The notes beneath the pieces are model-generated. The model ran no database searches and was not told the DNA's origin. It saw nothing but the letters and a program-made list of their open reading frames with translations. From Nitrospirae bacterium CG02_land_8_20_14_3_00_41_53 (lineage in GTDB: Bacteria > Nitrospirota > Thermodesulfovibrionia > Thermodesulfovibrionales > SM23-35), in the NCBI GenBank assembly GCA_002780895.1, contig PEUB01000036.1, positions 5,547 to 69,546 on the forward strand: a stretch of DNA of 64,000 nucleotides. The letters run 5' to 3'. This document shows positions 1,094-61,335 of this stretch, one piece after another. A program made the position numbers and the translations under genes. Every line of letters begins with the position of its first letter. The first letter of the stretch is position 1.

Positions 1094-2689
1094 CTATTTG
1101 TACCACTCAATTTTATTCTTTGGTACATACCAGTGGATAAAATCATGCCATATTCCGAGTGGTGCTTTTTCTACTCCTTTGAACCTCTTATGAAGTACTG
1201 GCAGGGCATCAGGGACATACAGGAATGTACATGGCTGTTCATCTGAAAGTATTTCATGAATCCTGTGATATATCTTTTTCCTTTTCTCCATATCAAAGCT
1301 GCGTCTTCCCTCGATCAGTAGTTTATCCACCTCATAATTCTTATATGAGATAAAATTAAACTCACCCTCTTTTGTCTTTGAGGAATGCCATATGTCAAAT
1401 ATATCAGGATCCCTCGAAAGTGCCCAGCCCATGATAACAGCCTCGAAGCGTTTCTTATCAATAAATTCATGTAGCATAGCCTGCCATTCAAGAACCTTAA
1501 TGTTCATCTTAATCCCTACCTTTTTTAGATTTTCCTTTATTATTTGTGCGGTCTTAAGCCTTGCATCATTCCCCTGGTTTACAAGCACAGTAAATTCAAA
1601 TGGTTTTCCGTCTTTTTCGAGTAAACCGCTTGGCCCCTTTCTCCAGCCTGCCTCCTCAAAAAGCTTCCTTGATCTCTTAGGATCATACTCAAGGTCTTTT
1701 ACCCCTGGGTTATATGCCCATGATTCCGGGGGAAAGGGTCCTGTGCATGGTGTCCCATAACCGAGCAAAACTCCAGCTATAATATCTTTTTTATTTATAG
1801 CATGAGTTATAGCCTGCCTTATCCTTCTGTCCGAAAATCTCTGGTCAAGAAGGTTATACCCAAGATATGTATATCCAAAAGAAGGATACCGGAATTTATG
1901 AAAGTATTTGTTGAAGAATTTTGTCTCTGCTTGAAGCTTATATTGAGGAGGTGTAAGTCCCATAAAGTCTATACCGCCAAATTTAAGCTCAAGAAACATT
2001 GTTGCAGTATCAGGTATGACGCGTAAGATGTATTTATCTATCATTGGCTTGCCCTCAAAGTAATTATCAAATGCCTCAAGAACTATCTTCTGACCCGTTA
2101 CCCATTCCCTCAATTTATATGGACCAGTACCAATAGGATTTCTACTGTATATTTCGTTAGTTATATCCTTTCCTTCAAGCATATGTTTAGGTATTATACC
2201 CATGCCCCATGACTCAAGCGCAGGCGCGTAAGGCTCTTTGTAAACCACCCTTACCGTGTATCTGTCTAATGCCTCGACCTTTTCAACAGGCCCATAAGTA
2301 CTGCTGTACGGTGTTGGAACTTTCGGATTAATCACCGTGTTATAAGTAAAAATAACATCATCGGCTGTGAACTCCACTCCATCATGCCACAAAACACCTT
2401 TTCTTAAATGAAAGATTATCTGAAGACCATCAGAAGAGACTTCCCACGACTCGGCAAGGTCACCTGTAATTTTTATATCTTTGTCATATTTTGTTAGTCC
2501 ATTGAAAATCCAACCGCTTATATCTCCTGAGGCGCTGTCGGAGGCAAGCAGAGGCAGTAATTTTTTAGCATCTGCAAGTGAACCAATTGTTATGGCATTA
2601 GGTTTCTTGACATCCGGCTCACGACTGCAAGAAGTAAGGACTATAACCAGAATAAATAATAAAAAATAGCGAACATGGTTAGGTTTCAT
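1094..2689 (-). CDS. ABC transporter substrate-binding lipoprotein, family 5 (peptide/nickel, DppA/OppA-like)
   Basis: 531-aa ORF with a signal peptide and lipobox (VLTSC). The whole length resembles a family-5 solute-binding protein. Confidence 0.85.
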   Translation of the reverse strand: MKPNHVRYFLLFILVIVLTSCSREPDVKKPNAITIGSLADAKKLLPLLASDSASGDISGWIFNGLTKYDKDIKITGDLAESWEVSSDGLQIIFHLRKGVLWHDGVEFTADDVIFTYNTVINPKVPTPYSSTYGPVEKVEALDRYTVRVVYKEPYAPALESWGMGIIPKHMLEGKDITNEIYSRNPIGTGPYKLREWVTGQKIVLEAFDNYFEGKPMIDKYILRVIPDTATMFLELKFGGIDFMGLTPPQYKLQAETKFFNKYFHKFRYPSFGYTYLGYNLLDQRFSDRRIRQAITHAINKKDIIAGVLLGYGTPCTGPFPPESWAYNPGVKDLEYDPKRSRKLFEEAGWRKGPSGLLEKDGKPFEFTVLVNQGNDARLKTAQIIKENLKKVGIKMNIKVLEWQAMLHEFIDKKRFEAVIMGWALSRDPDIFDIWHSSKTKEGEFNFISYKNYEVDKLLIEGRRSFDMEKRKKIYHRIHEILSDEQPCTFLYVPDALPVLHKRFKGVEKAPLGIWHDFIHWYVPKNKIEWYK

Positions 2690-2781
2690 CTCTTTAAGAT
2701 ATATACTTTATCACAACGGTATATGTATTTGACACGTAACGGTTTTGTTATAATTATGTTACATCATGAAGGAGGTTAAAG

Positions 2782-2835
2782 ATGAAGGTTATAGCTTTTA
2801 ACGGGAGTCCGAGGGAAAAATCAGTCAATCCCTAA
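2782..2835 (+). pseudogene. 17-codon remnant of a flavodoxin-like/NADPH-dependent FMN reductase gene
   Basis: GAAGGAGG RBS followed by ATG at 2782. The product MKVIAFNGSPREKSVNP then hits a stop. MKVIAFNGSPR is the typical N-terminus of ~180-aa flavodoxin-fold reductases. The reading frame runs into the 3' end of the convergent hemW-like gene. Confidence 0.45.
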
Positions 2836-4248
2836 TCTCTCAAACAACTTCACTATAATTGTATTTGATATAACTATTCCTTTTCTTGTAAGCCTGAGAT
2901 AACCTCTCTCAATCTCGAGATAACCTTCATCAACTAATTCTCTGGATGCTTGGAGTATATTTATGTCATTCCTGCGGAAGCAGGAATCCAGAGAAGTAAA
3001 AAAGCTGGATTCCGCATCAAGTGCGGAATGACAACTCTGATTCCGCGAAACTGTGATGTCAGATAGTGTATTAATGTTTATTCCTTCTGTCTTTCTCAAC
3101 TTTAAAAAAATTATTTCCTTTAATGTATCTGTTGGTGTTAGCTTGATTGATTCTATCTCAGGGATTATCCCGCTGTTCAAATCTTGTATATATCTGTTAA
3201 TATCTTCGGTATTTTTTGAACGTATTCCATTGATAAAAGAGTGGGCTCCTGCACCAACTCCGATGTACTCTCCTCTATCCCAATAATTGAGATTATGAAC
3301 GCATCTGAATCCTGGTAATGCAAAATTGGATATCTCATAGTGTTCATAGCCACAGCTTGCAAAATAATCTATTGCGTGGTTGTACATTTCAATGATCAGT
3401 TCTTCATCAGGCAATTTAATTTTATTTGCAAATTCCCCCTTACCCCCCTTTGCTAAAGTGGGGAATTTACCATTAATAATGTTTCCATCCCCATCGATGG
3501 GGGAGGGGTAGGGTGGGGGTGATTTTTTGTATTCATTTTCACCCTCCCCCTTATCCCCTCCCATCAAGGGAGGGGAAGTATAAGATATTTCGCGTTTATG
3601 TTGCGGGACGGGTTTATTAGATTTCAACAGTTTGTAAAGCGGCGTATTTTCCTCGAGTGTAAGTTCATAAGTGGAAATATGAGTTGGTGACAATTCGACT
3701 GCCGTTGAGATAGAATTATGCCAAGATTCAATCGCCTGACCTGGAACTCCATACATTAAATCAACTGAAAAATTATTTATGCCTTCTTTTTTAATTATCT
3801 CAATTGATCTTGAAGCATCTTCTGATGAATGAATCCTTCCGAGTGTTTTAAGCTCGTCATTATTAAATGATTGTATTCCAATGCTAAGCCTGTTAACCCC
3901 GAGAGAAAGCACCGTATTTATTTTAGATTCATTTATTGTCCCGGGATTTGCCTCTACTGTTATTTCAATATCAGACGAGAAACTAAAATTATCTTTCAGG
4001 CATATAAATAGTTGTTTAAAACATTCATCAGGCAATAAAGATGGTGTGCCACCTCCTGTGTAAATTGTTTTCAATGTCGTATAGAAATCTTTCTTAAGGT
4101 AAAGTTCTTGGTAGAGAGCATCAATGTATGTCTTTGCGACTGACTCATCATATGGCATAGAAAAGAAATCACAATATGTACATTTTTGAATGCAGAATGG
4201 AATGTGAATATAGAGTAAATTAGGCATGAACAGCGGACTCTGTTCCAT
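2821..4248 (-). CDS. hemW: Radical SAM HemN/HemW-family protein (oxygen-independent coproporphyrinogen oxidase-like / heme chaperone) carrying repeat-derived insertions
   Basis: ORF 2821..4281 has YIHIPFCIQKCTYCDF (CxxxCxxC) and the GGGTPS motif. It is about 100 aa longer than usual for the family because of in-frame repeat blocks at 2965..3032 and 3431..3576. The start is uncertain: ATG at 4248 or 4227, and the 4281 ATG lies inside a repeat. Confidence 0.8.
   Translation of the reverse strand: MEQSPLFMPNLLYIHIPFCIQKCTYCDFFSMPYDESVAKTYIDALYQELYLKKDFYTTLKTIYTGGGTPSLLPDECFKQLFICLKDNFSFSSDIEITVEANPGTINESKINTVLSLGVNRLSIGIQSFNNDELKTLGRIHSSEDASRSIEIIKKEGINNFSVDLMYGVPGQAIESWHNSISTAVELSPTHISTYELTLEENTPLYKLLKSNKPVPQHKREISYTSPPLMGGDKGEGENEYKKSPPPYPSPIDGDGNIINGKFPTLAKGGKGEFANKIKLPDEELIIEMYNHAIDYFASCGYEHYEISNFALPGFRCVHNLNYWDRGEYIGVGAGAHSFINGIRSKNTEDINRYIQDLNSGIIPEIESIKLTPTDTLKEIIFLKLRKTEGININTLSDITVSRNQSCHSALDAESSFFTSLDSCFRRNDINILQASRELVDEGYLEIERGYLRLTRKGIVISNTIIVKLFERLGID
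2965..3032. repeat. GTCAT...ATGAC hairpin-pair element, in-frame inside the hemW-like gene
   Basis: The left arm gtcattcctgcggaagcaggaatccag and right arm ctggattccgcatcaagtgcggaatgac are terminal inverted repeats. Each arm contains its own 8-bp hairpin. The element encodes HSALDAESSFFTSLDSCFRRND. Confidence 0.85.
3431..3576. repeat. Three GC-rich nested palindromic elements, in-frame inside the hemW-like gene
   Basis: Copies at 3431..3467 (aattccccc-tta-cccccc-tttgctaaa-gtgggg-aatt), 3486..3521 (reverse orientation) and 3540..3576 (caccctccccc-tta-tcccctccc-atcaa-gggagggga). Together they encode a Pro/Gly-rich stretch, SPPLMGGDKGEG...PPPYPSPIDGDG...LAKGGKGEF. Confidence 0.85.
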
Positions 4249-4252
4249 GATT

Positions 4253-4352
4253 GCATGCTGAACTCTTATGTTTAGACACACCCCTTAATCCCCTCTTGAT
4301 AGAGGGGAAAGAAGAAGTAGACTCCCCTCTATCAAGAGGGGCAGGGGGTGTG
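4253..4352. repeat. Composite repeat: catgctgaac module plus two inverted GC-rich palindromic elements
   Basis: The two copies cacacccc-tta-atcccctc-ttgata-gagggga and ctcccctc-tatcaa-gaggggc-a-gggggtgtg face each other. The gcatgctgaac module is also seen at 6607. Confidence 0.85.
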
Positions 4353-4395
4353 TCATTAAAAATATCCTGCCTATCCAATCAGATCTTATGTCCCT

Positions 4396-6183
4396 TCATT
4401 TTACTTTCAAAACTGCAAGAAATGCCTCCTGCGGCAGCTCGATCTTTCCCACCTGTTTCATCCTCTTTTTACCCTCTTTCTGTTTTTCGAGCAGCTTTCT
4501 CTTACGGGTTATATCACCGCCATAACACTTGGCAATGACATCCTTTCTGAGCGCTCTCACACTTTCCCTCGATATAATCTTATTGCCGATTGCAGCCTGT
4601 ATTACAACCTCAAACATCTGTCTCTGAATAATCTCTCGCAGTTTTTCGGTCAGCTCTCGCCCTTTATAATATGCCTTGTCCTTATGAACTATCAAAGAAA
4701 GCGCATCAACAACTTCACCATTGATTAGTATATTGAGCTTAACAAGGTTTGATTCTCTGAATCCGATGAAATCATAGTCCATAGATGCATAACCCTTTGA
4801 TAAAGACTTTAATCTGTCATAAAAGTCCCAGAGGATTTCATTTAAAGGCAGTTCATACTCAACCTTTATCCTGTCTTTTCCAATGAACGTGAAACTTTTC
4901 TGAAAACCTCTTTTTTCCTGACACAAGTCCAATATTGGACCGATAAAATCTTTAGGCATAAAAATAGTTGCAACAACAAAAGGCTCTTCTATCATCTCGT
5001 ATTTTTCCGGCAGCAGTGCCGGATTTTCGATATATAAAATATCTCCACCTGTTTTTGTTACCCTGTAAACAACTGTTGGTGCCGTGCTTAAGAGTGACAA
5101 ATCAAATTCCCGTTCAAGCCTTTCCTTTATGATCTCCATGTGAAGCAGTCCCAAAAAACCGCACCTGAATCCAGAGCCGAGGGCTAAAGATGTCTCTGGC
5201 TCATAATTGAAAGAAGAATCATTAAGTCTTAATTTATTCAGTGCATCCCTGAGATTTTCATATTGATGTGATTGAGTTGGATAAAGACCACAGAAGACCA
5301 TCGGTTTTATATCTTTATATCCAGGGCATGGCTCTTGTGCAGGGTTATCAGCATCAGTTATCGTGTCACCTATTTTTGTATCAGTAACGCTTTTTATGCC
5401 TGATATTATGTAGCCTACTTCCCCTGAAGAAAGTTCGCTAATAGGCTCCATTTTAGGCGAAAAGATTCCAACCTGAGATACTTCATAGACACCTTCCGTT
5501 GCCATCAGTTTAATTTTTTTGCCAGCCATTACCTTTCCGTCAAATACCCTGACGAGAATGATAATACCCTGGTAATTATCAAACCATGAATCAAAGATTA
5601 AGGCCTTCAATGGCTTATTATCATCTCCTGCTGGGGATGGAATCTTTTTTACTATAGCATCAAGGATTTCCCTCGTGCCTATCCCTTCTTTTGCGCTCGC
5701 AAGTATGGCATCAGAGCAGTCAATCCCGATTGCATCTTCTATCTGTCTCTTTGTTTTTTCTGGATCAGCACTCGGGAGGTCTATCTTGTTTATAACAGGG
5801 ATTATTTCAAGGTTATGCTCTAATGCAAGATAAGCATTTGCAAGTGTCTGCGCCTCAACACCCTGCGACGCATCAACCACAAGGAGTGCTCCATCGCATG
5901 AAGCAAGACTCCTTGAAACCTCATAAGAGAAGTCAACATGTCCTGGGGTGTCTATAAGATTAAGGATATAATTATTACCATCATCAGCCTTATATAAGAG
6001 CCTTACGGCGTGGGCCTTTATGGTAATACCTCTTTCTCTTTCAAGGTCCATTGAATCTAAAACCTGTTCGGTCATCTCCCTTGCACTCAGGGCACCTGTA
6101 TATTCAAGAAGTCTGTCTGCAAGTGTAGACTTCCCATGGTCTATGTGGGCTATGATGGAAAAATTACGTATATTTTTTGCCAT
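4396..6183 (-). CDS. lepA: Elongation factor 4 (LepA)
   Basis: [24 protein letters not shown] GTPase N-terminus with full-length EF4 similarity. The ORF-track start at 6189 is a TTG; I prefer the ATG at 6183. Confidence 0.95.
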
Positions 6184-12364: not shown

Positions 12365-12807
12365 GCTCTTACTGGTGGATGTTCATTAATCAAGAGCCAA
12401 TAAAGCCCTATATGTTTAACAGTCTCAACAAACTGGTTAAAGTCAACCGGCTTTTTTATATAACTGTTAACCCCTAAGTCATAGCTCTCTACGACATCCC
12501 TCTCTTCCTTTGATGATGTGAGAACCACGACAGGGATGAGTTTGCGCCTTCTGTCTACCTTTATCCTCCTCAGGACATCTATTCCGTCTACCTTAGGTAG
12601 TTTAAGGTCGAGCAGTATAAGGCCAGGAAGAGGGTGAGATGGATTAGAATACTTCCCTGTATAGAAGAGATAATCGAGTGCCTCCTGTCCATCACGAACA
12701 ATTTCAACAAGATTAACAATATTGTTTTTTTTGAGTGCATGAATAGTTAGTTCTACATCATCAGGGTTATCCTCTACTAAAAGAATATTTACATTTCCAT
12801 TAATCAT
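12361..12807 (-). CDS. Single-domain response regulator (CheY-like)
   Basis: 148 aa with [23 protein letters not shown] and a conserved K. It overlaps both neighbours by 4 nt, suggesting operon coupling. Confidence 0.9.
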
Positions 12808-14930
12808 CTATATCCTCCTTTGGGCAATTTTATAAAAAATGTTGTGCCTTTTCCCGGTTCAGATTCAGCCCATACCTTTCCATGATGGCGGTCAATTATC
12901 CTTTTTACGATTGCAAGACCGATGCCGGTGCCTTCGTATTCTTCGGGAAGATGAAGCCTCTGAAAGACATGGAATATCTTATCATGATATTGCATGTCAA
13001 AACCTATACCATTATCCTTGACAAATGTTGTATCTTTCTCTTCATCAAATCCTATCTCGATCTCCGGCCTCTCCTTCCCCTGTGTAAACTTAATAGCATT
13101 CGAAATGAGATTAGAAAAAACTGTCTGCATCAGTATTAAATCACAATTCATTGCCGGTACTTCCCCTATCTTTATAGAAATACCCCTCGATGCAATTTCT
13201 TCTCTGAAATCCTTCAGTACAGTATTAATTATAGCACCAAACTCTACAGGCCTCAATTGAAGCTCAGTCCTCCCTGCCCTCGAAAGTGCGAGTATATCGT
13301 CTATCAGGATTGACATCCTGTTTATGCCATCACTTATCCTCTTCAGGTAATGTTTGCATCTATCATCAAGCTGTGCTGAATATTCATCAAGGAGTATTAT
13401 TGAAAAGCCGGCAATTCCTCTGAGGGGTGCCCTCAGGTCGTGAGAGACAGAATAGGCAAATGCCTCAAGCTCTTTATTCGCCTGTTCTAATAAATGGGTC
13501 TTTTCATTCAGCATCGCGGTTCTTTCGGCTACCTTCAATTCCAATTCCTTGCTGAATGACGAGATTCTTTCATATAATTTTTCCAAATCATCAAGCATGG
13601 CATTTATGTGCTGGGAAACCATATCTATTGCATCATTCTTTTCCAATACCTCGGTTCTGATACTCAGGTTTCCCTCAGAGACCCTTGATAAGATCACTGA
13701 AAGACCTTTTACCCTTTCCTCAAGGTATCTTCTCTGTTCTTCTTCTCGGGCTGCTGCCTCTTCAATATATCTCAACCTTTCAGCATCTAAGACCGGTGTA
13801 ATGTCCCGAAAGACCTCAAGACCAGCCAGTATTTTACCTGAGGCATCTCTTAGAGGACCAGCGCTTACCATTATCGGGATCTTCTTTCCTTCTCGATTCG
13901 TGATATTTACCCTTAGAGTCTTTACTACGTCTCCCTTTTCAAAACTCTGTTTTATAGGGCATGCGATGTCGCAGATATCTGAATTGAGCAGATTACTGCA
14001 GGTCATCTTTCCTTCTACTTCTTCCTTGGTATACCCCGTAATGTCCTCACATGCTTCATTTAGATGAGTAACTATCATTTCAGGATTGACTATAAACAAA
14101 GGATCAATAATAGCTGTCTTTAAACTGTTTGCATACTCTATCTGATCTTTAATACTCCTGACCATGTAGTTGAAGGTAGTGCCGAGGACTCCGATCTCGT
14201 CTTCTGTCTTTACATCCATGGAAACAGACATGTCTCCCTCAGCAAATCTCTTTGCCTTCTTAGCTAAACTCTCTACAGGATGCCTTACCAATTTAGTCAG
14301 CATGGTATAAATTAAGGCGATTATTGCAAATATGCCTAATATACTCATTAGTATAGTGCGGTTTCTGACAGAGGCAATAGCCGCATAAGTTTCTTCGGTA
14401 TTCATCCTTATTACCATGCTGCCGAGAACCTTCATGGAAGAGCCATGGCAGTGATAACATTCCTCATGGTTCAGAATGGGATGGACATGGATAAGGTATC
14501 TTCCAGTTGGGGTCTCCTCTTCAAAAAAAGCCGGCTTGTGTTCCCCTGTTTTTAGTATATTGCTTAATGTCTGTAAGACATTTTTATTATAAATATGATT
14601 TGCTAAATTGGATTTTACTTTATCCTTGTGTGTGGCATAAATTATCTTTTGGTCAAAATCACAGATAAATACCTCCAATCCTTTCATTTCTTCTTTCACG
14701 TATGATAATTCTTTTTCTATAGACTCGCTGTCTCCTACTGACATGGGATACTTTATTGTGGTATAGATTGTGCTGGCGAGGCCATCAGCGAACCTTTCCA
14801 TCTCTGTTAACATAATTCTGGCCTGATTGGAGGCGGTCATGTAAATTACAACAAGCATAACGACGGTTACACTCACTGTCAGTACTGTCAGAACTGTTCT
14901 ACTTAATCTTTTTCTTATAAACTTAAACAC
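12804..14930 (-). CDS. Sensor histidine kinase with an extracytoplasmic c-type-heme (CxxCH, DUF3365/Tll0287-like) domain, HAMP, PAS, HisKA and HATPase_c
   Basis: Two TM helices flank a ~155-aa domain containing [20 protein letters not shown] (CYHCH codons at 14445..14459). It also has an H-box [10 protein letters not shown] and G-boxes DNGIGF/GTGIGL. Confidence 0.85.
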
Positions 14931-14974
14931 TCTAATTTAAAAATTCTCTTAGCTTGCTAAAGGGGTTCCTTATA

Positions 14975-14999
14975 TCATTCCCACGAAAGCAGGAATGAC
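14975..14999. repeat. Single GTCAT-family hairpin (tcattcccacgaaagcaggaatgac)
   Basis: Imperfect stem attcc(cac)/(gca)ggaat with a GAAA loop, bounded by tcat/atga. Intergenic, between panB and the kinase gene. Confidence 0.7.
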
Positions 15000-15055: not shown

Positions 15056-15856
15056 TTATTTAAAACTTTGTTCTTCTGATGGGAAGATACCTTTTTCTAC
15101 TTCTTCTTTGTAGACCTTTATTGCATTTAATGCTTCATCTTTTAAGTTTACATATCTCTTGGCAAACTTTGGCAAAAACCTTTCAAATAAACCAATAACA
15201 TCATGGAGGACAAGCACCTGCCCGTCACAATATGGACCTGCACCAATACCAATGGTCGGTATTGAAAGCTCCTCTGTAATCTTCTTAGCAAGCCCTATCG
15301 GTATAGCTTCAAGCAGCAAAGAGAATGCACCAGCGTCTTCAGCTATATGGGCTTCTTCTAATAGTTTTTTTGCAGATTCCTCAGTCTTGCCCTGGATCTT
15401 ATATCCACCCATCCTGTGGATAGACTGGGGTGTAAGGCCTATGTGTGCCATAATAGGGATATCTGACTTTGTCATTGCCCTAATATGCGCGGCCACCTCT
15501 GCCCCGCCTTCTATCTTTACAGCAGAAGCGCCAGCGTCTTTTAAAAACCTCCCTGCATTTCTAATAGCATCTTCAATACTTGCCTGATAGGACATGAACG
15601 GGAGGTCTCCGATAACCATTGCATTTTTGACTGCCCTTGAAACAATATTTGTATGGTAAATCATTTCGTCCATTGTAACCGGAAGTGTATTTTCAAGACC
15701 CTGTACAACCATGCCTACAGAATCACCGACAATTATCGCATCAATACCTGCCTCATCAACTATTTTTGCAAACGGATAATCATAGGCAGTAAGCATGGTA
15801 ATCTTTTTGTGCCCTGCTTTTTTCTTAAGAAAATCCTGAATCGTTATCTTGGACAT
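15056..15856 (-). CDS. panB: 3-methyl-2-oxobutanoate hydroxymethyltransferase
   Basis: 266 aa; KITMLTAYDYPFAKIVDEAGIDAIIVGDSVGMVVQG is typical of PanB. Confidence 0.93.
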   Translation of the reverse strand: MSKITIQDFLKKKAGHKKITMLTAYDYPFAKIVDEAGIDAIIVGDSVGMVVQGLENTLPVTMDEMIYHTNIVSRAVKNAMVIGDLPFMSYQASIEDAIRNAGRFLKDAGASAVKIEGGAEVAAHIRAMTKSDIPIMAHIGLTPQSIHRMGGYKIQGKTEESAKKLLEEAHIAEDAGAFSLLLEAIPIGLAKKITEELSIPTIGIGAGPYCDGQVLVLHDVIGLFERFLPKFAKRYVNLKDEALNAIKVYKEEVEKGIFPSEEQSFK

Positions 15857-33294: not shown

Positions 33295-33325
33295 AGTAAT
33301 AATGAAATGATAATATTAGGTAACT

Positions 33326-35422
33326 ATGAAAAGACTCGATAGTATTGATGACCTTATTGTCCTCCGTAACCTTCTATTAAAAGAAGGGGTATTAGCCCCT
33401 GGTAAAAAAAGGATAAAGGTTTGTTGTGGGCTTCCCTGTAGCACCTTGGGTTCCCATGAAGTTACAAAGGAATTAGAGAATGAAATCTCTAAGAACAGTC
33501 TGGATATCGAAGTGATAAAAACAGGATGCCAGGGTCTTTGCCAGAGAGGACCCCTTATAAAGACCGAACCATATAATTATTTCTATCAGAAAGTCAGTCC
33601 AGAAAAAGTAGGAGAGATTATATCTAAGACCTTTTTAGCAGGACGACCTGTAAGAGAGTGTCTTTTCAGAGATTCTTTTCTTGAGCCACCCAAAGAAGTA
33701 ACTGAAGAGATTCCTTTTTATAAGAAGCAGCTGAAGGTTGCACTCAGGAATACTGGTTGTATAGACCCGCATAGTATATCTCACTATATTGTAACCGGCG
33801 GGTATATGGCTATTGAAAAGATATTTTCCTCCATGAGCCCAGAACAAGTACTTGAGGAGGTAACAAAGGCTAACCTCAGGGGCCGGGGTGGTGCAGGGTT
33901 CCCCGCAGGGAAAAAGTGGAAACATACCAAAAGTTCTCGTTGTGACATAAAATTTGTGATAGCCAATGGTGATGAAGGTGACCCTGGCGCTTTTATGGAC
34001 AGGTCTGTCATGGAAGGTGATCCTCACAGCCTGCTCGAGGGAATGCTTATATGTGCTTATGCAATTAGTGCACATTATGGGATTATTTATGTCCGTCACG
34101 AGTACCCTCTTGCCATTAAGAATTTGGGAATAGCTATTAATCAAGCGCAGGAGCTTGGGCTTATAGGTAAAAATATCCTCGGGACAGGATTTGATTTTAC
34201 AGTTCACATAAGGGAAGGCGCGGGTGCCTTTGTGTGCGGTGAATCTACTGCTCTTATTGCATCGGTAGAAGGAGAAAGGGGTATGCCGCGACCAAGACCT
34301 CCGCGACTTTCTGAAATTGGAGGAGGGGTTTGGGGATATCCAACTAATTTGAATAATGTAGAGACTTATGCTTGTATGCCTCAAATAATCGAGAAGGGAG
34401 CCGATTGGTTCCTGAATATAGGAACAGAAAATTCACCTGGTACAAAAGTATTTTCTCTTGCAGGAAAGGTTAAAAATACAGGGCTTATTGAAGTGCCTAT
34501 GGGGATAACCCTGAGGGAGATCATATTCGATATTGGGGGAGGAATATTAAATAATAAGAAATTCAAGGCAGTGCAGACAGGAGGGCCTTCGGGCGGGTGT
34601 ATCCCTGAGCAATATCTTGATCTGCCTGTAGATTATGATTCTCTTGCAAAGGTTGGCTCAATAATGGGTTCAGGTGGAATGGTCGTAATGGATGAGGACA
34701 ACTGTATGGTAGATGTTGCTAAGTTTTTCCTCTCCTTTACACAGGCTGAGTCATGCGGGAAATGTCCTCCATGCAGGATAGGTACATACCAGATGCTCCA
34801 AATCCTCGAAAAGATAACATTAGGCAATGGAGAGGAAGGAGATATAGGAAAACTTGAAAGGTTTGGGAAACTTGTAAAGGCAGGTTCCCTCTGTGGTCTT
34901 GGCCAGAATGCACCAAACCCTGTTCTTACGACCATCAAATATTTCCGTGAAGAATACGAAGAGCATATAAGAGATAAATATTGCAGGGCAAAGGTCTGCA
35001 CCGGACTCGGATTACTCTCAATAAACACTGAAATCTGCTACCAGTGTATGCGCTGCATGGATACATGTCCATTTGAGGCAATAAAAGAATCCAGGGAAGG
35101 TGGATTTTATATAGACCAGGTGCTCTGCCAGAGATGTAAGGCATGCTATATGGCATGTCCCTTAGGCGCTATAGAGATTAAAGAACAGCCCTTTACCTAT
35201 ATAGATACAGAGCTATGCTATCTCTGCGGCCGCTGTAAAGATGTATGCAGGATTAATGCAATAAAGGAAACTTCAACCGGATTCATGATAGATCGCTTTG
35301 TATGTAGGAAGTGCGGTGATTGTTACAATATATGCCCTATGGGAGCTGTGAGGTTTGAGAAAAGAACCCACCCCCCTGTGTCCCCCCTTAGTAAGGGGGG
35401 AATTAAAGAGGGGTGCCCTTAG
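33326..35422 (+). CDS. Second NuoF/HydB-like subunit (tandem paralog) with C-terminal polyferredoxin extension
   Basis: 698 aa with the same core motifs as the upstream paralog. Four CxxCxxCxxxCP-type clusters follow at the C-terminus. The last ~17 aa (HPPVSPLSKGGIKEGCP) are encoded by a GC-rich palindromic repeat. Confidence 0.88.
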   Translation: MKRLDSIDDLIVLRNLLLKEGVLAPGKKRIKVCCGLPCSTLGSHEVTKELENEISKNSLDIEVIKTGCQGLCQRGPLIKTEPYNYFYQKVSPEKVGEIISKTFLAGRPVRECLFRDSFLEPPKEVTEEIPFYKKQLKVALRNTGCIDPHSISHYIVTGGYMAIEKIFSSMSPEQVLEEVTKANLRGRGGAGFPAGKKWKHTKSSRCDIKFVIANGDEGDPGAFMDRSVMEGDPHSLLEGMLICAYAISAHYGIIYVRHEYPLAIKNLGIAINQAQELGLIGKNILGTGFDFTVHIREGAGAFVCGESTALIASVEGERGMPRPRPPRLSEIGGGVWGYPTNLNNVETYACMPQIIEKGADWFLNIGTENSPGTKVFSLAGKVKNTGLIEVPMGITLREIIFDIGGGILNNKKFKAVQTGGPSGGCIPEQYLDLPVDYDSLAKVGSIMGSGGMVVMDEDNCMVDVAKFFLSFTQAESCGKCPPCRIGTYQMLQILEKITLGNGEEGDIGKLERFGKLVKAGSLCGLGQNAPNPVLTTIKYFREEYEEHIRDKYCRAKVCTGLGLLSINTEICYQCMRCMDTCPFEAIKESREGGFYIDQVLCQRCKACYMACPLGAIEIKEQPFTYIDTELCYLCGRCKDVCRINAIKETSTGFMIDRFVCRKCGDCYNICPMGAVRFEKRTHPPVSPLSKGGIKEGCP
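35367..35415. repeat. GC-rich nested palindromic element forming the 3' end of the NuoF-2 gene
   Basis: cccacccccc-tgt-gtcccccc-ttagtaa-gggggg-aattaaa-gaggggtg. The stop codon is at 35420..35422. Confidence 0.8.
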
Positions 35423-48652: not shown

Positions 48653-49627
48653 TTATCTATATGGGATAAAAACTATATTTCTTATTTCTGCAGGGAGGCT
48701 TTCTTTTGAAGGGCCAAGAGCAGTTACTCTGTAACTCCTCTTGGTTGATGGTTTATCTTTGTCAAGGAATGCAGGGGTCTGGGTATCTCCAATAAATATA
48801 AAACCCTCTTGCTTATTTATCTCTCTGTAAACCTTGTAACCAACTACCCATGTATCAGGAGATTCTTTCCAGCTGAGATATACATTCTCCTTTTTAACTA
48901 TTGCCTGAAGGCCTGAGGGAGAAGATGGCACAAATTCCAAAGGATTTATCTCAACCTCTCCTGAGGCAGGTCCTTCGTCCCTTATATCGGAACCTACAAG
49001 GCTTCTTATTGTATAGTAAACATGCCCTTTTATTGCAAAGTTATCCCTGAATGAGGTTTCCTTAATTGGTTCTTTATGCACAGGCATTAAACGGTATATG
49101 CCTTTCTCATTACTTTTATAGATGTTATAAAGGATTCTATCTCCCGCACTTTCCCAGTTCAATGTCAGAGAGTCATGTTCTACCTTAAATAGAATTTTTC
49201 CGGGAGGGGGAGGTACGGTTTCAGGATCAATTTGTATGATATTTGAGTCATTACTTATTACATTTTTCAGATTCTGGGAAACGATTTTATATTTGTATTT
49301 AGAGCCTATTTTAAAATCATTATCTATATAAGACCGCTTATTATTTTCAAGGGTGGCGATCTTTTCAAAATCCCCACCTGTTGATTTCATCAGGTAAAAT
49401 CCTTTTATTGCTGGTTCTTTATCTTTTGGAAATTCCCACAGGAGGATAATCTCTGATTCTCTGTGGACGGCCCTGAGCGCAGAAGGCGGATCCGGCTTTT
49501 CGTATGATTTGAGTGTAGGGTCACCTTTTTTGCCACATGAGGGGAGTAAACAGTAAACAGTAAATAGTAAACAAAAGATAAAAAGACCAAATCTGACTTC
49601 TGACTTCTGTATTCTGAGTTCTATCAT
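48653..49627 (-). CDS. Lipoprotein with beta-sandwich (Fn3-like) repeats, function unknown
   Basis: 324 aa. The N-terminus MIELRIQKSEVRFGLFIFCLLFTVYCLLPSCG (signal peptide plus lipobox Cys) is encoded entirely by heptad arrays. Confidence 0.7.
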   Translation of the reverse strand: MIELRIQKSEVRFGLFIFCLLFTVYCLLPSCGKKGDPTLKSYEKPDPPSALRAVHRESEIILLWEFPKDKEPAIKGFYLMKSTGGDFEKIATLENNKRSYIDNDFKIGSKYKYKIVSQNLKNVISNDSNIIQIDPETVPPPPGKILFKVEHDSLTLNWESAGDRILYNIYKSNEKGIYRLMPVHKEPIKETSFRDNFAIKGHVYYTIRSLVGSDIRDEGPASGEVEINPLEFVPSSPSGLQAIVKKENVYLSWKESPDTWVVGYKVYREINKQEGFIFIGDTQTPAFLDKDKPSTKRSYRVTALGPSKESLPAEIRNIVFIPYR

Positions 49628-49662: not shown

Positions 49663-49751
49663 TCGGAATCGACTCGTACCGAGCTTGTCCAGAATCCTTC
49701 TTTGGTCCCCTTGAACAAAGATAAGAAAGATTCCCGACAAGCGGGAATGAC
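49663..49751. repeat. GTCAT...ATGAC element
   Basis: gtcattctggtcggaatc...gattcccgacaagcgggaatgac. Intergenic, between argH and the lipoprotein gene. Confidence 0.8.
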
Positions 49752-49776: not shown

Positions 49777-51150
49777 TCATTTGATTAAATTATCGAGTCT
49801 TCTTATCTGTCTTCTGACTTCATCCGGAGCTGTACCACCCCTCGATGTCTTTGCCTTTACAGAATCTTCGGCTTCAATATGAGAATATATGTCTTTTTTA
49901 ATTAAAGGAGAAAATTTTTTCAACTCATTGATAGAAAGCTCTTCGAGTTTCTTTTTCTCCTTGATGCAATAAAGAACAATCTTACCTGTGATTTTATGAG
50001 CCTTCCTGAAGGGTACCCCTTTTTTTACAAGGTATTCTGCAATATCAGTTGCGGTCGAATAGGCATCTCCTGCGGTTTCATGCATTCTCTTTGTGTTTAC
50101 TTTTATGCTTGGTAGCATTTCATTCAGGACGATAAGGCAGGATTTGACCGTCTCCACTGTATCAAAGACAGGCAACTTGTCTTCCTGTAGATCCCTGTTG
50201 TATGAGAGTGGAATGCCTTTCATTACAGTTAAAAGAGATAACAGGTTTCCATAAACCCTCCCTGTTTTTCCCCTGATAAGTTCTGCTACATCCGGATTCT
50301 TTTTCTGAGGCATTATGCTCGAACCTGTTGTAAAAGCATCAGGTAGTTCGATGAATCTGAATTCCTCAGTTGACCATAATATAAGCTCCTCAGCAAGCCT
50401 TGAGAGATGCATGATGAGTAAGGCAGCACTTGATAGGAACTCTATTGCAAAGTCCCTGTCTGATACCGCATCAATACTATTTTGAGAGATTCCCTTAAAA
50501 TCGAGAAGTTTTGCGACATAACCCCTGTCTATAGGAAGGGCTGTCCCTGCAATGGCACAGGAGCCTAAGGGAAGCAGGTTTATCCTTTTTAATGCATCTT
50601 TAAATCTTTCGTTGTCCCTCTGCAGCATCTCAACATAGGCGAGCAGGTGATGAGAAAATAGTACAGGCTGTGCCCTTTGCAGATGTGTATAGCCAGGCAT
50701 TAATGAATTGAGGTGGTTTGTTGCCATATTAAGAAGTATCTTCTGGAATTTCTTTATAAGTGATAGTATCTCTTTTATCTCTGCCCTGAGATATAATCTG
50801 AGGTCAAGTGCTACCTGATCGTTCCTTGACCGTGCTGTGTGAAGTTTTCCACCCACATTACCTAACTTTTTTATAAGTGCAGCCTCGATATTCATGTGAA
50901 TATCTTCGAGGTCTTCTCTGAACTTGAACTTTCCGGTTCCTATCTCTTTTGCTATAATTTCAAGACCATTTATTATCTTTTCAGAATCTGCTTTTGTAAT
51001 GATACCCTGTTTGCAGAGCATCTTTGTGTGCGCAATGCTTCCTTCAATATCGTATCTCCATAAACGGTGGTCAAATGAGATTGACTCTGTGAAGGATTCC
51101 ACGGTCTTTGAGGTCTTTTCCTTGAACCTTCCTGCCCAGGGTTTTTTCAT
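49777..51150 (-). CDS. argH: Argininosuccinate lyase
   Basis: 457 aa with the GSSIMPQKKNPD signature. Confidence 0.96.
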   Translation of the reverse strand: MKKPWAGRFKEKTSKTVESFTESISFDHRLWRYDIEGSIAHTKMLCKQGIITKADSEKIINGLEIIAKEIGTGKFKFREDLEDIHMNIEAALIKKLGNVGGKLHTARSRNDQVALDLRLYLRAEIKEILSLIKKFQKILLNMATNHLNSLMPGYTHLQRAQPVLFSHHLLAYVEMLQRDNERFKDALKRINLLPLGSCAIAGTALPIDRGYVAKLLDFKGISQNSIDAVSDRDFAIEFLSSAALLIMHLSRLAEELILWSTEEFRFIELPDAFTTGSSIMPQKKNPDVAELIRGKTGRVYGNLLSLLTVMKGIPLSYNRDLQEDKLPVFDTVETVKSCLIVLNEMLPSIKVNTKRMHETAGDAYSTATDIAEYLVKKGVPFRKAHKITGKIVLYCIKEKKKLEELSINELKKFSPLIKKDIYSHIEAEDSVKAKTSRGGTAPDEVRRQIRRLDNLIK

Positions 51151-52304: not shown

Positions 52305-52793
52305 CTATTCCCTTCTGGATAATAAAGAGAGAAAGCCCCAAACTCCCCCCAAAACAGCGCCTAAGGCAAGAGCAGAATGCCAGTCAAGAAGCGTTGTTAC
52401 ATTTCCTTCGATCTTATTAGCGATAACAAGGAATGCAGAAGTATTCTCTGACTTCACATCTCTTCCAGCCATAAAGCCAACAGCAGATCTGTTAACAATT
52501 GTATGTTCTCTTGAAATGGACACAGGAGAAAATGAAAAATTTATAGATACATTTTCAGCAGCAGTAACACCACTTATACTCTGGTTAAGACTTATATCAT
52601 TTCCTCTGAGGATAGCAGTTGCCCCCTGTGTAACCTCTACCTTTTCTCCGTCTATGCTGAGTGCTCCTACCTGCTGGAGTTCGATATGACCTCCTTCAAC
52701 AGCCCTGACAGTGCTCTGTTTTATATTGATAAACTCCCCCTCAATAAATTCGAGGTCTCTTTCTTCAAGTTCTCTTCCGTCTCTATGGGTCAT
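52305..52793 (-). CDS. Hypothetical tail-anchored protein with repetitive beta-strand-like core
   Basis: 162 aa with a C-terminal TM helix (ALALGAVLGGVWGFLSLL). It overlaps the valS stop by 11 nt and ends 1 nt before nadC. Confidence 0.5.
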   Translation of the reverse strand: MTHRDGRELEERDLEFIEGEFINIKQSTVRAVEGGHIELQQVGALSIDGEKVEVTQGATAILRGNDISLNQSISGVTAAENVSINFSFSPVSISREHTIVNRSAVGFMAGRDVKSENTSAFLVIANKIEGNVTTLLDWHSALALGAVLGGVWGFLSLLSRRE

Positions 52794-55611
52794 TTTTCAC
52801 CTCCACATCTTTAAGCATTTTAATACTTTCTAAAATCCTTTTCTTTATAATTATCAGTTCTTCATATTTTGCTTTTTCCTTATCAATAATCTCTCTGGGC
52901 GCCCTCTGGAGGAAGTCCTCATTAAAGAGTTTCCTGTTCAAAGACACGATAGACACATCTACCTTTGCCTCCTCTTTCTTAAGTCTATCGACTTCTGCAG
53001 TAATATTCAAGACCCCTTTAAGAGGAACATATATCTCCATAGAACTCTTAACAGAGGTTGCAGAGCACTCTGGCTTCTCAATGTTCATACCTATCTTAAT
53101 TTCGCCAGCCTTTGCAAGGTTTTTGAGATATTGTACGTTTTCCTTCAATATTTTCTCTGCCATTTGAGAAAATGTCTTTATTGACACATTGAGTTTAAGT
53201 GATGGTGATATGTTCAGCTCCCCTCTGATGGTTCTTATTCCCATTACAGCCTCTATGATATATGACATGTCTTCTTCAGCCTGGTAGTCTCTTGGTAAAG
53301 ACTTCGGATAATCTGAGACCATAATACTCTCCTTAATTGCTGAATGCTGAATTTTTATCGTCTGCCAAATCTCCTCTGTAACAAAGGGCATAAAAGGATG
53401 CAGCAGCCGTAAGGATGTATCGAGTGTATGCAGGAGACACCATCTGACGCCAGTTTGTGAGTTTAGGGTTCGGGGTTCGGAGTTTCCATCCCCTCCCTTG
53501 CCCTCCCCCCTCGAGAGGGAGGGTTGGGTGGGTGGGTTGATTTCGGATTTCGCCATCTCAAGATACCAGTCACAGAATTCATGCCATACGAACTGGTATA
53601 TACTACTTGCTGCGTCATTAAACCGATATTCTTCGAGTGCCCTGTTTATATCATCTGCTATAGCGGCAAGTCTGCTCAATATCCATTTACTTGCAAGATC
53701 ATGAGGCGTGTGAGTAATCCTCTCAACCCCTTCTTTTTCAAATCCCCCCTTACCCCCCTTTTCTAAAGGGGGGGTGGGGGGATTAGTATTCATCATAATG
53801 AATCTTGCTGCGTTCCAAAGCTTATTTACAAAATGCCTGTACCCTTCAACCCTTTTTTCCGAAAACTTAATATCGCGCCCCTGTGCAGTAAAAGCAGCAA
53901 GTGTAAACCTGAATGCATCTGTACCGTATCTGTCTATCATTATCAAAGGATCAACAACATTACCTTTTGATTTAGACATCTTCTGGCCTTTCAGATCCCT
54001 GACGAGTGCATGTATATAAACATCCCTGAAAGGCACGTCTCCCATGAATTTAAGTCCCATCATTATCATCCTTGCGACCCAGAAAAAGATTATATCGAAC
54101 CCTGTCACAAGAACGCTTGTAGGATAGAAGGTCTTAAGATCGTCAGTATTATCAGGCCAGCCAAGGGTAGAAAATGGCCATAGGGCAGACGAAAACCATG
54201 TATCGAGTACATCTTCATCCTGAATCAATTCTTCTGAGCTACAGTAAGGACATACTTGTGGTACATCTCTTGATACTATAACTCCATTTTGCATTTTGCA
54301 TTTTGCATTTTGCATTTTCTGACAGTACCATACAGGTATTCTGTGTCCCCACCATATCTGACGGGATATGCACCAGTCTTTTATATCTTCCATCCATGCA
54401 AAATATGTATTCTCCCATGTTTTAGGTATGATGTTAATTTTTCCCTCTTTAACTACCCTGATAGCATCTTTAGCAATGGACTGTACATTCACATACCACT
54501 GAGGTGTTGACAGCGGCTCGGTAATAGTCTTGCATCTGTAACAGTGGCCTACAGCATATTTGTACAACTCCTCTTTTTCTAAAAGATTAAGTACCTTCAA
54601 ATCTTTAATGACAAGTTTTCTGCACTCATATCTATCCAGACCTGCATATCTGTTTCCTGCATTTACTGTCATAAGACCATCGGCCCCGATCACGGTTATG
54701 AATTCTAAAGGTGGGATCTGTTTTTTTGCTATAGCCTCGTCATTAAAATCATGGGCTGGTGTTACCTTTACTGCGCCTGTACCAAAAGAAGGGTCTACTG
54801 CATGATCAGAAATAATAAGGATTTTTCTGTCAGTTAGAGGCAGGTTTATAGTTTTACCAATGAATTTTTGGTATCTGCTGTCTTCAGGGTTTACAGCCAC
54901 AGCAGTATCTCCGAGCATCGTCTCAGGCCTGGTAGTTGCTACAGTTATATACCCCCTCTTATTATCCCCCCCCCTTGCTAAGGGGGGGATAGGGGGGGTT
55001 AGTGGATACTTTATGTAAGTCAGCTTTCCTTCTAATTCCTCGTATTCTACCTCGAGGTCGGAAAGCGCGGTGTTACAGCGGGGGCACCAGTTTATAAGCC
55101 GGTTATCCCTGTATATCAGACCTTCCTCATAAAGTCTTACAAAAACCTCTCTTACAGCCTTTGAAAGCCCATCATCAAGTGTAAACCTTTCCCTTGACCA
55201 GTCACATGAAGCGCCGAGCCTTTTAAGCTGGTGGATTATCTTTCCACCGTATTCGGCCTTCCATTTCCATACACGCTCTATAAAGGCATTACGGCCGAGT
55301 TTATCCCTATCAAGTCCCGTAGATGCGAGCTGCTTTTCTACAACGTTCTGTGTAGCAATGCCTGCATGGTCAGTGCCTGGCAGCCATAGGACTTTATAAC
55401 CTGACATACGCTTCCAGCGAGAGAGTATATCCTGTAGTACCGTATTAAGGGCATGGCCCATGTGGAGAGAACCTGTAATATTCGGAGGGGGTATTACTAA
55501 AGAGTAAAAACTGCCTTTGAGGTCCGGGTCTGGCTTAAAATATCCTTTTGAGACCCAGTATTCATACCACCTTTCTTCTATACCTTGCGGATTGTAGCCT
55601 TTTTCTAAAAT
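52783..55611 (-). CDS. valS: Valyl-tRNA synthetase carrying five in-frame repeat insertions
   Basis: The ORF-track start (ATG 55461) is the Met of the HIGH motif (PPPNITGSLHMGHA). The frame continues upstream through ILEKGYNPQGIEERWYEYW to the stop at 55636..55638 with no ATG/GTG/TTG. The candidate start is ATT at 55611..55609, 5 nt after TAAGG. KMSKS motif and C-terminal coiled coil are present. Confidence 0.9.
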   Translation of the reverse strand: MLEKGYNPQGIEERWYEYWVSKGYFKPDPDLKGSFYSLVIPPPNITGSLHMGHALNTVLQDILSRWKRMSGYKVLWLPGTDHAGIATQNVVEKQLASTGLDRDKLGRNAFIERVWKWKAEYGGKIIHQLKRLGASCDWSRERFTLDDGLSKAVREVFVRLYEEGLIYRDNRLINWCPRCNTALSDLEVEYEELEGKLTYIKYPLTPPIPPLARGGDNKRGYITVATTRPETMLGDTAVAVNPEDSRYQKFIGKTINLPLTDRKILIISDHAVDPSFGTGAVKVTPAHDFNDEAIAKKQIPPLEFITVIGADGLMTVNAGNRYAGLDRYECRKLVIKDLKVLNLLEKEELYKYAVGHCYRCKTITEPLSTPQWYVNVQSIAKDAIRVVKEGKINIIPKTWENTYFAWMEDIKDWCISRQIWWGHRIPVWYCQKMQNAKCKMQNGVIVSRDVPQVCPYCSSEELIQDEDVLDTWFSSALWPFSTLGWPDNTDDLKTFYPTSVLVTGFDIIFFWVARMIMMGLKFMGDVPFRDVYIHALVRDLKGQKMSKSKGNVVDPLIMIDRYGTDAFRFTLAAFTAQGRDIKFSEKRVEGYRHFVNKLWNAARFIMMNTNPPTPPLEKGGKGGFEKEGVERITHTPHDLASKWILSRLAAIADDINRALEEYRFNDAASSIYQFVWHEFCDWYLEMAKSEINPPTQPSLSRGEGKGGDGNSEPRTLNSQTGVRWCLLHTLDTSLRLLHPFMPFVTEEIWQTIKIQHSAIKESIMVSDYPKSLPRDYQAEEDMSYIIEAVMGIRTIRGELNISPSLKLNVSIKTFSQMAEKILKENVQYLKNLAKAGEIKIGMNIEKPECSATSVKSSMEIYVPLKGVLNITAEVDRLKKEEAKVDVSIVSLNRKLFNEDFLQRAPREIIDKEKAKYEELIIIKKRILESIKMLKDVEVKNDP
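53452..53537. repeat. Heptad array (53452..53486) abutting a GC-rich nested palindrome (53487..53537), in-frame in valS
   Basis: agtttgt gagttta gggttcg gggttcg gagtttc, then catcccctccc-ttg-ccctcccccc-tcgag-agggaggg-ttg-ggtgggtggg. Encodes PPTQPSLSRGEGKGGDGNSEPRTLNSQTG. Confidence 0.85.
53741..53784. repeat. GC-rich nested palindrome in-frame in valS
   Basis: aatcccccc-tta-cccccc-ttttctaaa-gggggg-gt-gggggg-att. Encodes PPTPPLEKGGKGGF. Confidence 0.9.
54284..54318. repeat. Heptad tandem array, ccatttt then (gcatttt)x4, in-frame in valS
   Basis: Tandem 7-nt units. On the coding strand they read (aaaatgc)n and encode CQKMQNAKCKMQNG. Confidence 0.9.
54951..54999. repeat. GC-rich nested palindrome in-frame in valS
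   Basis: accccctc-ttat-tatccccccc-cttgctaag-ggggggata-gggggggt. Encodes TPPIPPLARGGDNKRG just before the ATTRPETMLGDTAVAV motif. Confidence 0.9.
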
Positions 55612-56402
55612 TCTGACCTTATCCTCTCTATCTCTTTAGAAATCATCGTCTCTGCAAGGTCAGGTACAGTCTCCCATATTACCTTTTCAACCTCTTTTGT
55701 AAGGGATTCGAGGGCACCTTTTAATATCTCTTTCAGCATCCTCTCAACAAGGTCAGGTACAACTTCCCATAGTATCTTCTCGACGGAATCCTTCATCGAA
55801 GGCATCAGTGAGGTAAGGATAATTTCTTTTAAATCAAGCGAGGATAGTAATGAAGATATTCTTTCGTTAACAGTATTCTCGAATATGTCTTTAAGTTCGT
55901 CCTTTGAAGGAATTTCTACTTCAGGGATACCAATCTTTACCTCTGTAGCTGCAGCTTCTTCAACTGAAACTTCCTCTAAACCAACAGCCTCGGCTTCAGC
56001 AATACCCCCGGCTTCTTCTCCTTCCATTACAGATGATACAGTAAGAGCAGCATTTATCTTGTTTATTAACTCCTGTGATTCGAAGGGTTTTATAATAAAA
56101 TCATCTGCCTTAACCTGTTTTGCAAGCTCTTCATCAATCGGTTCAAATGCGCCTGCAAGGAGTATTACCGGGATACTGCTTATTAAAGGGTCTTGTTTTA
56201 TCTTTTCAGAAAGCTGGTAGCCGTTAATCTTGGGCATCTCTATGTCAGCAAGGATTATATCAGGCTTAAAAGAAGGGATAACAGCTAAAGCTTCCTCACC
56301 ATTATTAGTTACCTTGATCTCAAACCCTTCCTGTGCGAGGATAAGTTCTACAACCTTTTGTATGGTGATACTGTCATCTGCAAGAAGCAGTTTAATAGCC
56401 AT
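55605..56402 (-). CDS. Response regulator receiver protein with acidic linker and duplicated C-terminal helical motif
   Basis: REC domain (LLLADDSITIQK...ILADIEMPKINGY...IIKPF). The C-terminus has two copies of VEK(I/V)(L/I)WE(V/T)VPDL(V/A)E(R/T)M(L/I).KEI. Confidence 0.8.
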   Translation of the reverse strand: MAIKLLLADDSITIQKVVELILAQEGFEIKVTNNGEEALAVIPSFKPDIILADIEMPKINGYQLSEKIKQDPLISSIPVILLAGAFEPIDEELAKQVKADDFIIKPFESQELINKINAALTVSSVMEGEEAGGIAEAEAVGLEEVSVEEAAATEVKIGIPEVEIPSKDELKDIFENTVNERISSLLSSLDLKEIILTSLMPSMKDSVEKILWEVVPDLVERMLKEILKGALESLTKEVEKVIWETVPDLAETMISKEIERIRSEF

Positions 56403-61196: not shown

Positions 61197-61335
61197 AATG
61201 GGATGTGTCCCTATTTTCAATTTTCTATTTTCACTATTTTCAAGAAAAAAAGCGATCCTGATCGGAAATAGAAAAATTCTATTCCCTATTTTTGGTTCTT
61301 CAGAGAATTGTGTGGAAGGTGCATACCCAAAAAAA

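Follow-up and report, generated by a model that had tools for sequence, protein, structure and literature searches.

Palindromic repeats inserted in frame into protein-coding genes were first described in Rickettsia, where they are known as RPE (Ogata et al. 2000, as cited in PMC10969869). In-frame GTAG and CGTC repetitive extragenic palindromes (REPs) were later reported from several phyla, with tRNA synthetases among their targets; intragenic REP dimers encode 20–30 amino acids and clusters 43–82, and the intragenic CGTC REPs of R. conorii have been equated with RPE-4 and RPE-6 (Di Nocera et al. 2013, PMC3733652). Two inverted REPs and a spacer form a REPIN, which is mobilised by RAYT transposases (PMC3337134). 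Hairpins have also been reported to flank the genes of Ssn, a GIY-YIG nuclease acting on single-stranded DNA (ssDNA), and the NTS hairpin of N. meningitidis is reported to be intragenic in just 2% of instances (Chenal et al. 2025, PMC11893778). Here we analysed 64,000 nucleotides from Nitrospirae bacterium CG02_land_8_20_14_3_00_41_53 (contig PEUB01000036.1, positions 5,547 to 69,546; hereafter the window), in which hemW, the gene of a radical SAM heme chaperone, carries hairpin elements at two sites. Our data make it very probable that two loops of a functional hemW gene have taken up small, non-coding, selfish hairpin repeats of a REP/REPIN-like kind.

The gene occupies positions 2821..4227 on the minus strand and is an open reading frame (ORF) of 468 codons (start MPNLLYIHIPFC). 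A preliminary description, made from the sequence alone, had called it a HemW-like radical SAM gene enlarged by four in-frame repeats. The assignment holds, as the product scores 327 bits against the HemW equivalog TIGR00539 (cutoff 205.4), in two stretches parted by the insert at the first site. Radical_SAM (PF04055, 92.8 bits) and HemN_C (PF06969, 35 bits) are its only Pfam domains; the HemN_C match also falls into two stretches, with profile positions 1–28 preceding the insert at the second site. The cluster motif CxxxCxxC is unbroken (CIQKCTYC), and an ortholog alignment shows that all invariant residues of the family are kept. The best PDB match of the AlphaFold model is E. coli HemN (1OLT, E 2.9e-18). 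By these measures the ORF is a hemW, with heme binding and transfer as its predicted activity. The identical protein is encoded on 13 contigs from several Joint Genome Institute metagenome samples, so the hemW sequence is no assembly accident. The named relatives of the gene are Nitrospirota, the nearest named contig being a Thermodesulfovibrionales metagenome-assembled genome (MAG), and lepA lies upstream of hemW in the window and in every relative examined.

All four elements lie where the preliminary description had placed them, and the reading frame runs through them unbroken. Three belong to a GC-rich family and sit at site 1, in a 198-nt block on the minus strand (3424..3621, residues 203–268) that also contains spacers and a 45-nt leader, SNKPVPQHKREISYT (3577..3621, minus strand), of unassigned origin. 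The first, B1 (3430..3468), consists of pure C/G runs with a TTTGCTAAA loop, encodes KFPTLAKGGKGEF and folds with z = -3.5; it is a three-run version of a four-run palindrome, full copies of which occur in the related loci L124, L097 and L107. B2 (3488..3522, encoding SPPPYPSPIDGDG) has a CCCCTCCC stem and stands head-to-head with B3 (3539..3576, encoding SPPLMGGDKGEGE), itself a perfect 8–9 bp hairpin (z = -3.5). Both carry a TCACCC tag, and in the fold of 3483..3577 (z = -3.4) the G-box and the C-box that face each other are paired.

The fourth element, which we call family A, occupies site 2 and has a different architecture. Positions 2965..3032 read GTCATTCCTGCGGAAGCAGGAATCCAG-AGAAGTAAAAAAG-CTGGATTCCGCATCAAGTGCGGAATGAC; counting the T and the A that border it, the unit spans 70 nt (2964..3033) and reads TGTCATTCCTGCGGAAGCAGGAATCCAG / AGAAGTAAAAAAG / CTGGATTCCGCATCAAGTGCGGAATGACA, an inverted pair of 8-bp hairpins of NTS/SRM type. 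The left hairpin (2964–2991) and the right hairpin (3005–3033) form inverted arms of 28 and 29 nt around a 13-nt spacer (2992–3004). Their stems and loops are ATTCCTGC-GGAA-GCAGGAAT and ATTCCGCA-TCAAG-TGCGGAAT, each followed by CCAG, and the DNA fold (-19 kcal/mol, z = -7.2) was not equalled in stability by any of 200 shuffles. Read from the sequence, the hairpins are stop-free in five of the six frames. In hemW the unit encodes residues 399–421 (CHSALDAESSFFTSLDSCFRRND) and splits the HemN_C domain. Beside it, CTGATTCCGCGAAACTGTGATGTCAG (about 3036..3062) resembles the right hairpin by eye and might conceivably be a third, decayed SRM-type hairpin; it encodes approximately residues 389–398 and coincides with the start of a poorly predicted stretch of the protein (see below). 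The distinction between two repeat families stands as far as family A and the GC-rich elements are concerned, but the latter divide into two subtypes, so that there are perhaps three families.

Comparison with orthologs indicates that these segments are insertions, as had been proposed, and not conserved family residues. Our spacing counts cover the 99 of 120 retrieved orthologs with locatable anchor motifs (YELTxExxTxL and PxEELIL at site 1, LRKxxGI and EGY at site 2), and 29 orthologs were aligned. At site 1 the anchors are separated by 11 residues in 63/99 orthologs and by 75 in the window; the other 36 fall into at least 15 expanded states of 23 to 79 residues. At site 2 the spacing is 21 residues in 24/99, most others having one (32) or two (44) GC-rich elements that read PPFIPPLPRGD and similar, against 50 in the window and 45 in P0027. 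Family A is found at this site only in the window and in P0027/L123, and is absent from the other 97. Insert-free orthologs are 373–377 amino acids long (P0048 has 373, and the allele of P0010 encodes 399), as against 468 in the window, so by anchor spacing the protein has gained about 93 residues, 64 of them at site 1 and 29 at site 2, rather than the 70 or so first estimated; the excess is due to the 45-nt leader and the possible third hairpin.

The occupants differ by lineage, and one site may carry either family A or GC-rich elements. B2 is common to the window, L002, P0004, P0012, P0020 and P0022, and a single insert homologous to B1 is present in P0029, P0030, P0043, P0071 and others. 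Nested inserts occur in L002, P0022, P0034 and P0118: in L002 (about 1100–1125) the B3 homolog contains a hairpin of a different type, 24 nt long (CCCGCCTGCCGTCCGTCGGGCAGG, PACRPSGR), and near the same spot other lineages have nested inserts of their own (PAPLRRARPG, ASVASRCD). The frame is kept in every variant in this set of full-length proteins. In terms of sequence, inserts of this kind in a conserved gene, palindromic, in frame and lacking from homologs, resemble RPE-like elements. Both sites are insertion hot spots with lineage-specific occupants.

These comparisons also bear on whether the long form of HemW is ancestral, the short forms having arisen by repeated precise deletion. A GC-rich element beside the downstream anchor of site 1 is common to P0029, P0030, P0043, P0071 and P0108, which are 65–72% identical, and the site-1 block is present on two backbones, both of which favour this reading. 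Against it stand the more than 15 occupancy states and the nested insertions; most orthologs are short, and neither the HemW profile nor HemN has a counterpart to the inserts. The segments, moreover, copy repeats dispersed in intergenic DNA and unrelated genes. We regard an ancestral long form as highly improbable.

Comparison of alleles at the DNA level, which had been suggested as a check, showed presence/absence polymorphism in three near-identical pairs, as is seen with REPINs and with transposable elements of the miniature inverted-repeat kind (MITEs). L001 is 95–100% identical to the window over most of hemW, yet lacks the whole 198-nt site-1 block, which is likewise absent from L003 and L123. 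In L002 the block sits on a backbone resembling L003 (L002 and L003 are 96% identical). L123 and L124, at 94% identity, differ at both sites: in L124, site 1 has one GC-rich element and site 2 is empty; in L123, site 1 is empty and site 2 has the window's two family A hairpins abutting, with the spacer absent. Across positions 2900–3250 of the window, identity to L001 drops from 95–100% to 38–71% near site 2 before recovering to 95%, with the breakpoints flanking the family A element. Given this drop, and the occurrence of the block on differing backbones, we read hemW as a recombinant mosaic in which homologous recombination appears to carry segments with inserts from one allele to another. 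Special conservation of the site-1 block at the DNA level was ruled out, as it is 89.2% identical between the window and L002, like its flanks (89.3% and 87.7%).

Structure prediction, the other check proposed, gave a matching picture. In the AlphaFold model of HemW, which is a prediction from a shallow alignment, residues 205–268 and 389–421 have a predicted local distance difference test score (pLDDT) below 50 and no secondary structure; they are the only long low-confidence stretches and match the inserted blocks at both sites, while the helices on either side and the HemN-like barrel are retained. Site 1 lies between the radical-SAM core and the next helices, and site 2 lies inside the C-terminal HemN_C domain. 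The encoded peptides are rich in Pro and Gly (GC-rich family) or in Ser, Asp and Arg (family A).

One could instead suppose that the inserts have been co-opted, with the loops giving HemW, and ValS (see below), a new linker, interaction or regulatory property maintained by positive or purifying selection. Insert alleles do last across lineages about 11–18% apart in DNA, and the same two loops are filled in many orthologs. Against this, close alleles manage without inserts, family A and the GC-rich family alternate at the same site, the same elements are also present in intergenic DNA, and the peptides themselves are of low complexity, change freely and have no AlphaFold structure. Co-option is in our judgement unlikely.

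Two further explanations set aside the translated loop altogether. In the first, hemW would be a decaying pseudogene with a frame that is open by chance: 20% of the protein consists of four foreign segments, a terminator-like hairpin lies on the sense strand, and this lineage appears to have lost adjacent genes, with a remnant of a flavin mononucleotide (FMN) reductase gene left behind. Decay is difficult to reconcile with a full 468-codon ORF in which the invariant residues and CxxxCxxC are unbroken and the HemW score is well over the cutoff, with insert-bearing ORFs open in several diverged lineages (also where the inserts differ by about 11% in DNA) and with the conserved lepA-hemW order; we hold it to be very unlikely.

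In the second, the inserts would be removed after transcription or translation, by an intron- or intein-like process or by translational bypass, for which the strong hairpins at the RNA and DNA level could be cited. Pfam, however, finds no intein or Hint domain, the segments (23–66 amino acids) are far too short for inteins, and removal would not need the frame to be kept, as it is in all the variants seen among the full-length proteins. A search of Rfam at a permissive threshold (positions 2600–4500) gave no family at its gathering score. Its only matches below threshold were of miRNA-precursor-like families, which arise because of the long hairpins, and, at 2945–3051, of Wolbachia small RNA 46 (WsnRNA46; 21.9 bits against a gathering score of 65.3), probably through overlap of that RNA with a Wolbachia SRM-type repeat. 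Removal can be all but discounted. Intein, intron, pseudogene, ancestral feature and assembly artefact were thus each rejected as explanations of the hemW inserts.

Insertion of dispersed repeats is the explanation we prefer, and the GC-rich family is abundant in the window. Perfect 7-bp hairpins of C/G runs occur nine times, whereas 100 dinucleotide shuffles gave 0.14 on average and 1 at most, and a narrower C/G-run pattern has three matches against 0.08 expected. The common plan is a C-run, 2–4 nt, a second C-run, a loop and a G-run, to which full copies add a further 2–4 nt and G-run; in the window and its relatives, full copies are often bounded by AAAATC...GATTTT. In subtype 1, to which B1 and three other copies (35371, 53744 and 54952) belong, the C/G runs are pure and the loop is TTTxCTAAA; subtype 2, with the TCACCC tag and CCCCTCCC stem, includes B2, B3 and copies at 28327 and 61336, among others. 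The elements dimerise in both orientations. Between lepA and hemW, two lie tail-to-tail in a 98-nt near-perfect palindrome (4267..4364; inverted arms of 42 nt, 14 nt apart; -32.4 kcal/mol, z = -8.9), which is kept in L001 and L125–L128.

About 12 copies are present in the window, seven of them within ORFs. Besides the three in hemW, valS (52786–55635; NF004349, 1208 bits) has in-frame elements at 53491, 53744 and 54952, its product exceeding the profile span in length by about 68 residues, and a nuoF-like fusion ORF (33320–35419) has one in its last 20 codons, which form the C-terminal tail. In-frame tolerance is therefore not peculiar to valS and extends to at least two repeat families, as the preliminary description had argued, although the phenomenon itself was already documented (PMC3733652). 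One element (61336–61367) lies inside two overlapping ORFs on opposite strands, 60964–61461 (+) and 60999–61388 (-), which may be spurious and made by the repeat. Similar elements turn up in further Nitrospirota (L042) and in one MAG of the Dehalococcoidia (L074). We take the GC-rich elements to be a REP-like selfish family. In the searchable literature we found no name for the family and no account of GC-rich or family A-type elements in Nitrospirota.

Family A is sparse in the window, with one dimer and two single hairpins, and widespread elsewhere. The single hairpins, ATCATTCCCACGAAAGCAGGAATGAC (about 14965..14999) and GATTCCCGACAAGCGGGAATGAC (about 49725..49751), are both intergenic, in spacers that part co-directional minus-strand genes (12804–14930 and 15056–15856; 48653–49627 and 49777–51150). 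Scanning one genome per species with GTCATTCCTGCGNNNGCAGGAATCC returned at least 119 stretches with a family A hairpin. Among the matches listed were Nitrospirota, Bacteroidota, Chloroflexota, Planctomycetota, Omnitrophota, Proteobacteria including Rickettsia, and a Nanoarchaeote; an inverted partner hairpin lay within 400 nt in 35/137 instances, forming units of 61–135 nt in 26 of these and of 173–367 nt in the rest. Several partner hairpins were identical to the right hairpin of the window element. The tag is TGTC at both ends of the window unit and CGTC, TGTC or AGTC in related copies. Among the same listed matches, long ORFs contained only 22 of the 137 hairpins (16%), compared with 68% of random positions, so that a general enrichment of SRM hairpins in ORFs of other genomes was rejected in favour of depletion. 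Together with the rarity of intragenic NTS in Neisseria, this indicates that intragenic copies are a minority outcome everywhere.

Hairpins of the family A type are associated with GIY-YIG genes in other genomes. The left hairpin agrees with the Neisseria NTS consensus CGTCATTCCCGCGMAVGCGGGAATCYRG at 24/28 positions, two of the mismatches forming a compensatory stem pair. In L058 the two window-type hairpins bracket a 100-codon GIY-YIG ORF (PF01541). At 80 metagenomic loci encoding relatives of this protein, a hairpin was found upstream in 63, an inverted one downstream in 56 and both in 48, in agreement with the flanking hairpins reported for ssn genes (PMC11893778). In L141 the hairpins around the PF01541 ORF are nearly those of the window. 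Directly 3' of that gene lies a 62-nt two-hairpin unit (830–891) built like the window's, so the gene-bearing and miniature units adjoin. On account of these shared terminal hairpins, we read family A as the ends of a hairpin / ssn / hairpin unit without its gene; it looks like a gene-less miniature of that unit, to which it would stand as a MITE or REPIN does to an autonomous partner. By analogy Ssn would be the enzyme that moves it. We put forward only tentatively, and with more doubt than confidence, the wider proposal that family A is an actively mobile, non-autonomous derivative of the hairpin / ssn / hairpin unit, and that the Ssn GIY-YIG nucleases are the missing mobilisers of CGTC-REPs and Rickettsia RPE-type elements, homing to hairpins in coding loops. 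Such homing would explain why differing families occur in the same two HemW loops.

These data allow us to suggest how the hemW alleles came about. In the simplest account, insertions would strike many places, selection would remove every one that broke the gene, and only those that are in frame, stop-free and in tolerant loops would remain; the hemW inserts do keep the frame by their length, and the frame used is free of stops. Blocks would pass between alleles by homologous recombination, while new copies would land in or near older ones, making hot spots of both loops. The clustering of several elements, their nesting and the alternation of families at one loop suggest that existing hairpins attract new ones. 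The spread of family A probably depends on the single-strand-specific Ssn nuclease or on the ssDNA hairpin itself.

Several observations weigh against this account. The ortholog set was made of full-length proteins, from which disrupted alleles would escape, so that the uniformly kept frame is subject to ascertainment bias. The peptide sequences of the inserts diverge freely between lineages (for example between the window and P0002), which fits neutrality, but such free change is uninformative on function. That the inserts are translated into flexible loops which the fold tolerates is an inference, and the activity of the 468-residue protein is a prediction. No clear target-site duplication was found at the inserts; for family A, the sequences compared offered no empty site whose flanks match, and the GATAAAAAT / GATAAAATT repeats on either side of the GC-rich insert of L124 are either a duplication or, possibly, inverted ends that belong to the element itself. 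The published SRM pattern, HGTCWYN(0-2)YYVSBRHN(0-5)WNVSBRGN(0-2)RNCYNB, has no match in the window (0–2 in shuffles), each family A hairpin being one position short of it; strict SRM membership is accordingly not claimed. A tblastn search with an approximate GIY-YIG consensus found no Ssn-like gene in the window. Finally, CCAGCTTTTT follows the right family A hairpin (3009–3029, minus strand), on the hemW sense strand and about 190 nt ahead of the stop codon, and this combination of hairpin and T-run fits the consensus of an intrinsic terminator; it could attenuate hemW transcription.

The neighbourhood of hemW appears to have lost genes in this lineage. A 17-codon ORF at 2783–2836, MKVIAFNGSPREKSVNP*, resembles the N-terminus of a 190-residue FMN reductase (PF03358), MKVVAFNGSPRKK. 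In L123 the full gene of this enzyme is convergent to hemW, and the window lacks its remainder. FKBP, DsbC_N and thioredoxin genes stand between hemW and an SBP_bac_5 gene in relatives and are gone in the window. The short ORF and the loss of genes beside hemW look like the remnant of a deletion.

Our findings extend in-frame hairpin colonisation of housekeeping genes beyond Rickettsia and Proteobacteria to a free-living member of the Nitrospirota, and show that two or three repeat families can together lengthen one gene by 20%. Within the hemW clade there is a natural series of empty, single, double and nested alleles at two loops, which could be used to study the tolerance of proteins to insertion, the dating of events and the mobility of Ssn-associated hairpins. 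What the locus adds is the density of events in hemW and a concrete link between intragenic REP/RPE-type inserts and the hairpins of ssn genes. For annotation, peptides such as PPLxKGGxGG or LDSCFRRND in conserved proteins should be read as repeat insertions, not as new domains.

Compared with known systems, the hemW elements share with RPE and intragenic REPs their palindromic, in-frame insertion into housekeeping genes with homologs that lack them, and their position in what are thought to be loops or linkers (PMC10969869; PMC3733652). The hairpin GTCATTCCTGCG...GCAGGAATCC also occurs in Rickettsia itself, where it ends 135-nt units (L049). They differ in that the host is a free-living member of the Nitrospirota, a phylum not listed in PMC10969869 or PMC3733652, in that the units are much shorter than RPE-1, and in that two or three unrelated families share hemW, and even one loop, with the loops acting as hot spots across the whole ortholog clade. 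Membership of RPE in the strict sense was rejected, as the host belongs to the Thermodesulfovibrionales and only the terminal hairpin is common to the Rickettsia units.

With NTS/SRM hairpins, the window element shares the GTCAT 5' tag and the CCAG tail, and in other genomes (L058, L141) such hairpins flank GIY-YIG genes on both sides; in the window they instead enclose 13 nt and no gene, and are intragenic and in frame. The 8-bp stems, the 4–5 nt loops and the tail are as tabulated for CGTC REPs (PMC3733652), whereas the tag is TGTC. The 70-nt unit has the size and terminal inverted repeats of a MITE or REPIN and, like these, is a non-coding inverted hairpin doublet with a short spacer and many copies (PMC3337134; PMC10969869); a gene-bearing unit with the same ends exists, and presence or absence varies among close relatives. 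Unlike REPINs, family A is associated with a GIY-YIG nuclease rather than a tyrosine transposase of IS200/IS605 type, its transposition being putative, and the GC-rich family has no known associated gene. In every respect tested except the host and the identity of the elements, the hemW inserts fit the class of intragenic REP/RPE insertions.

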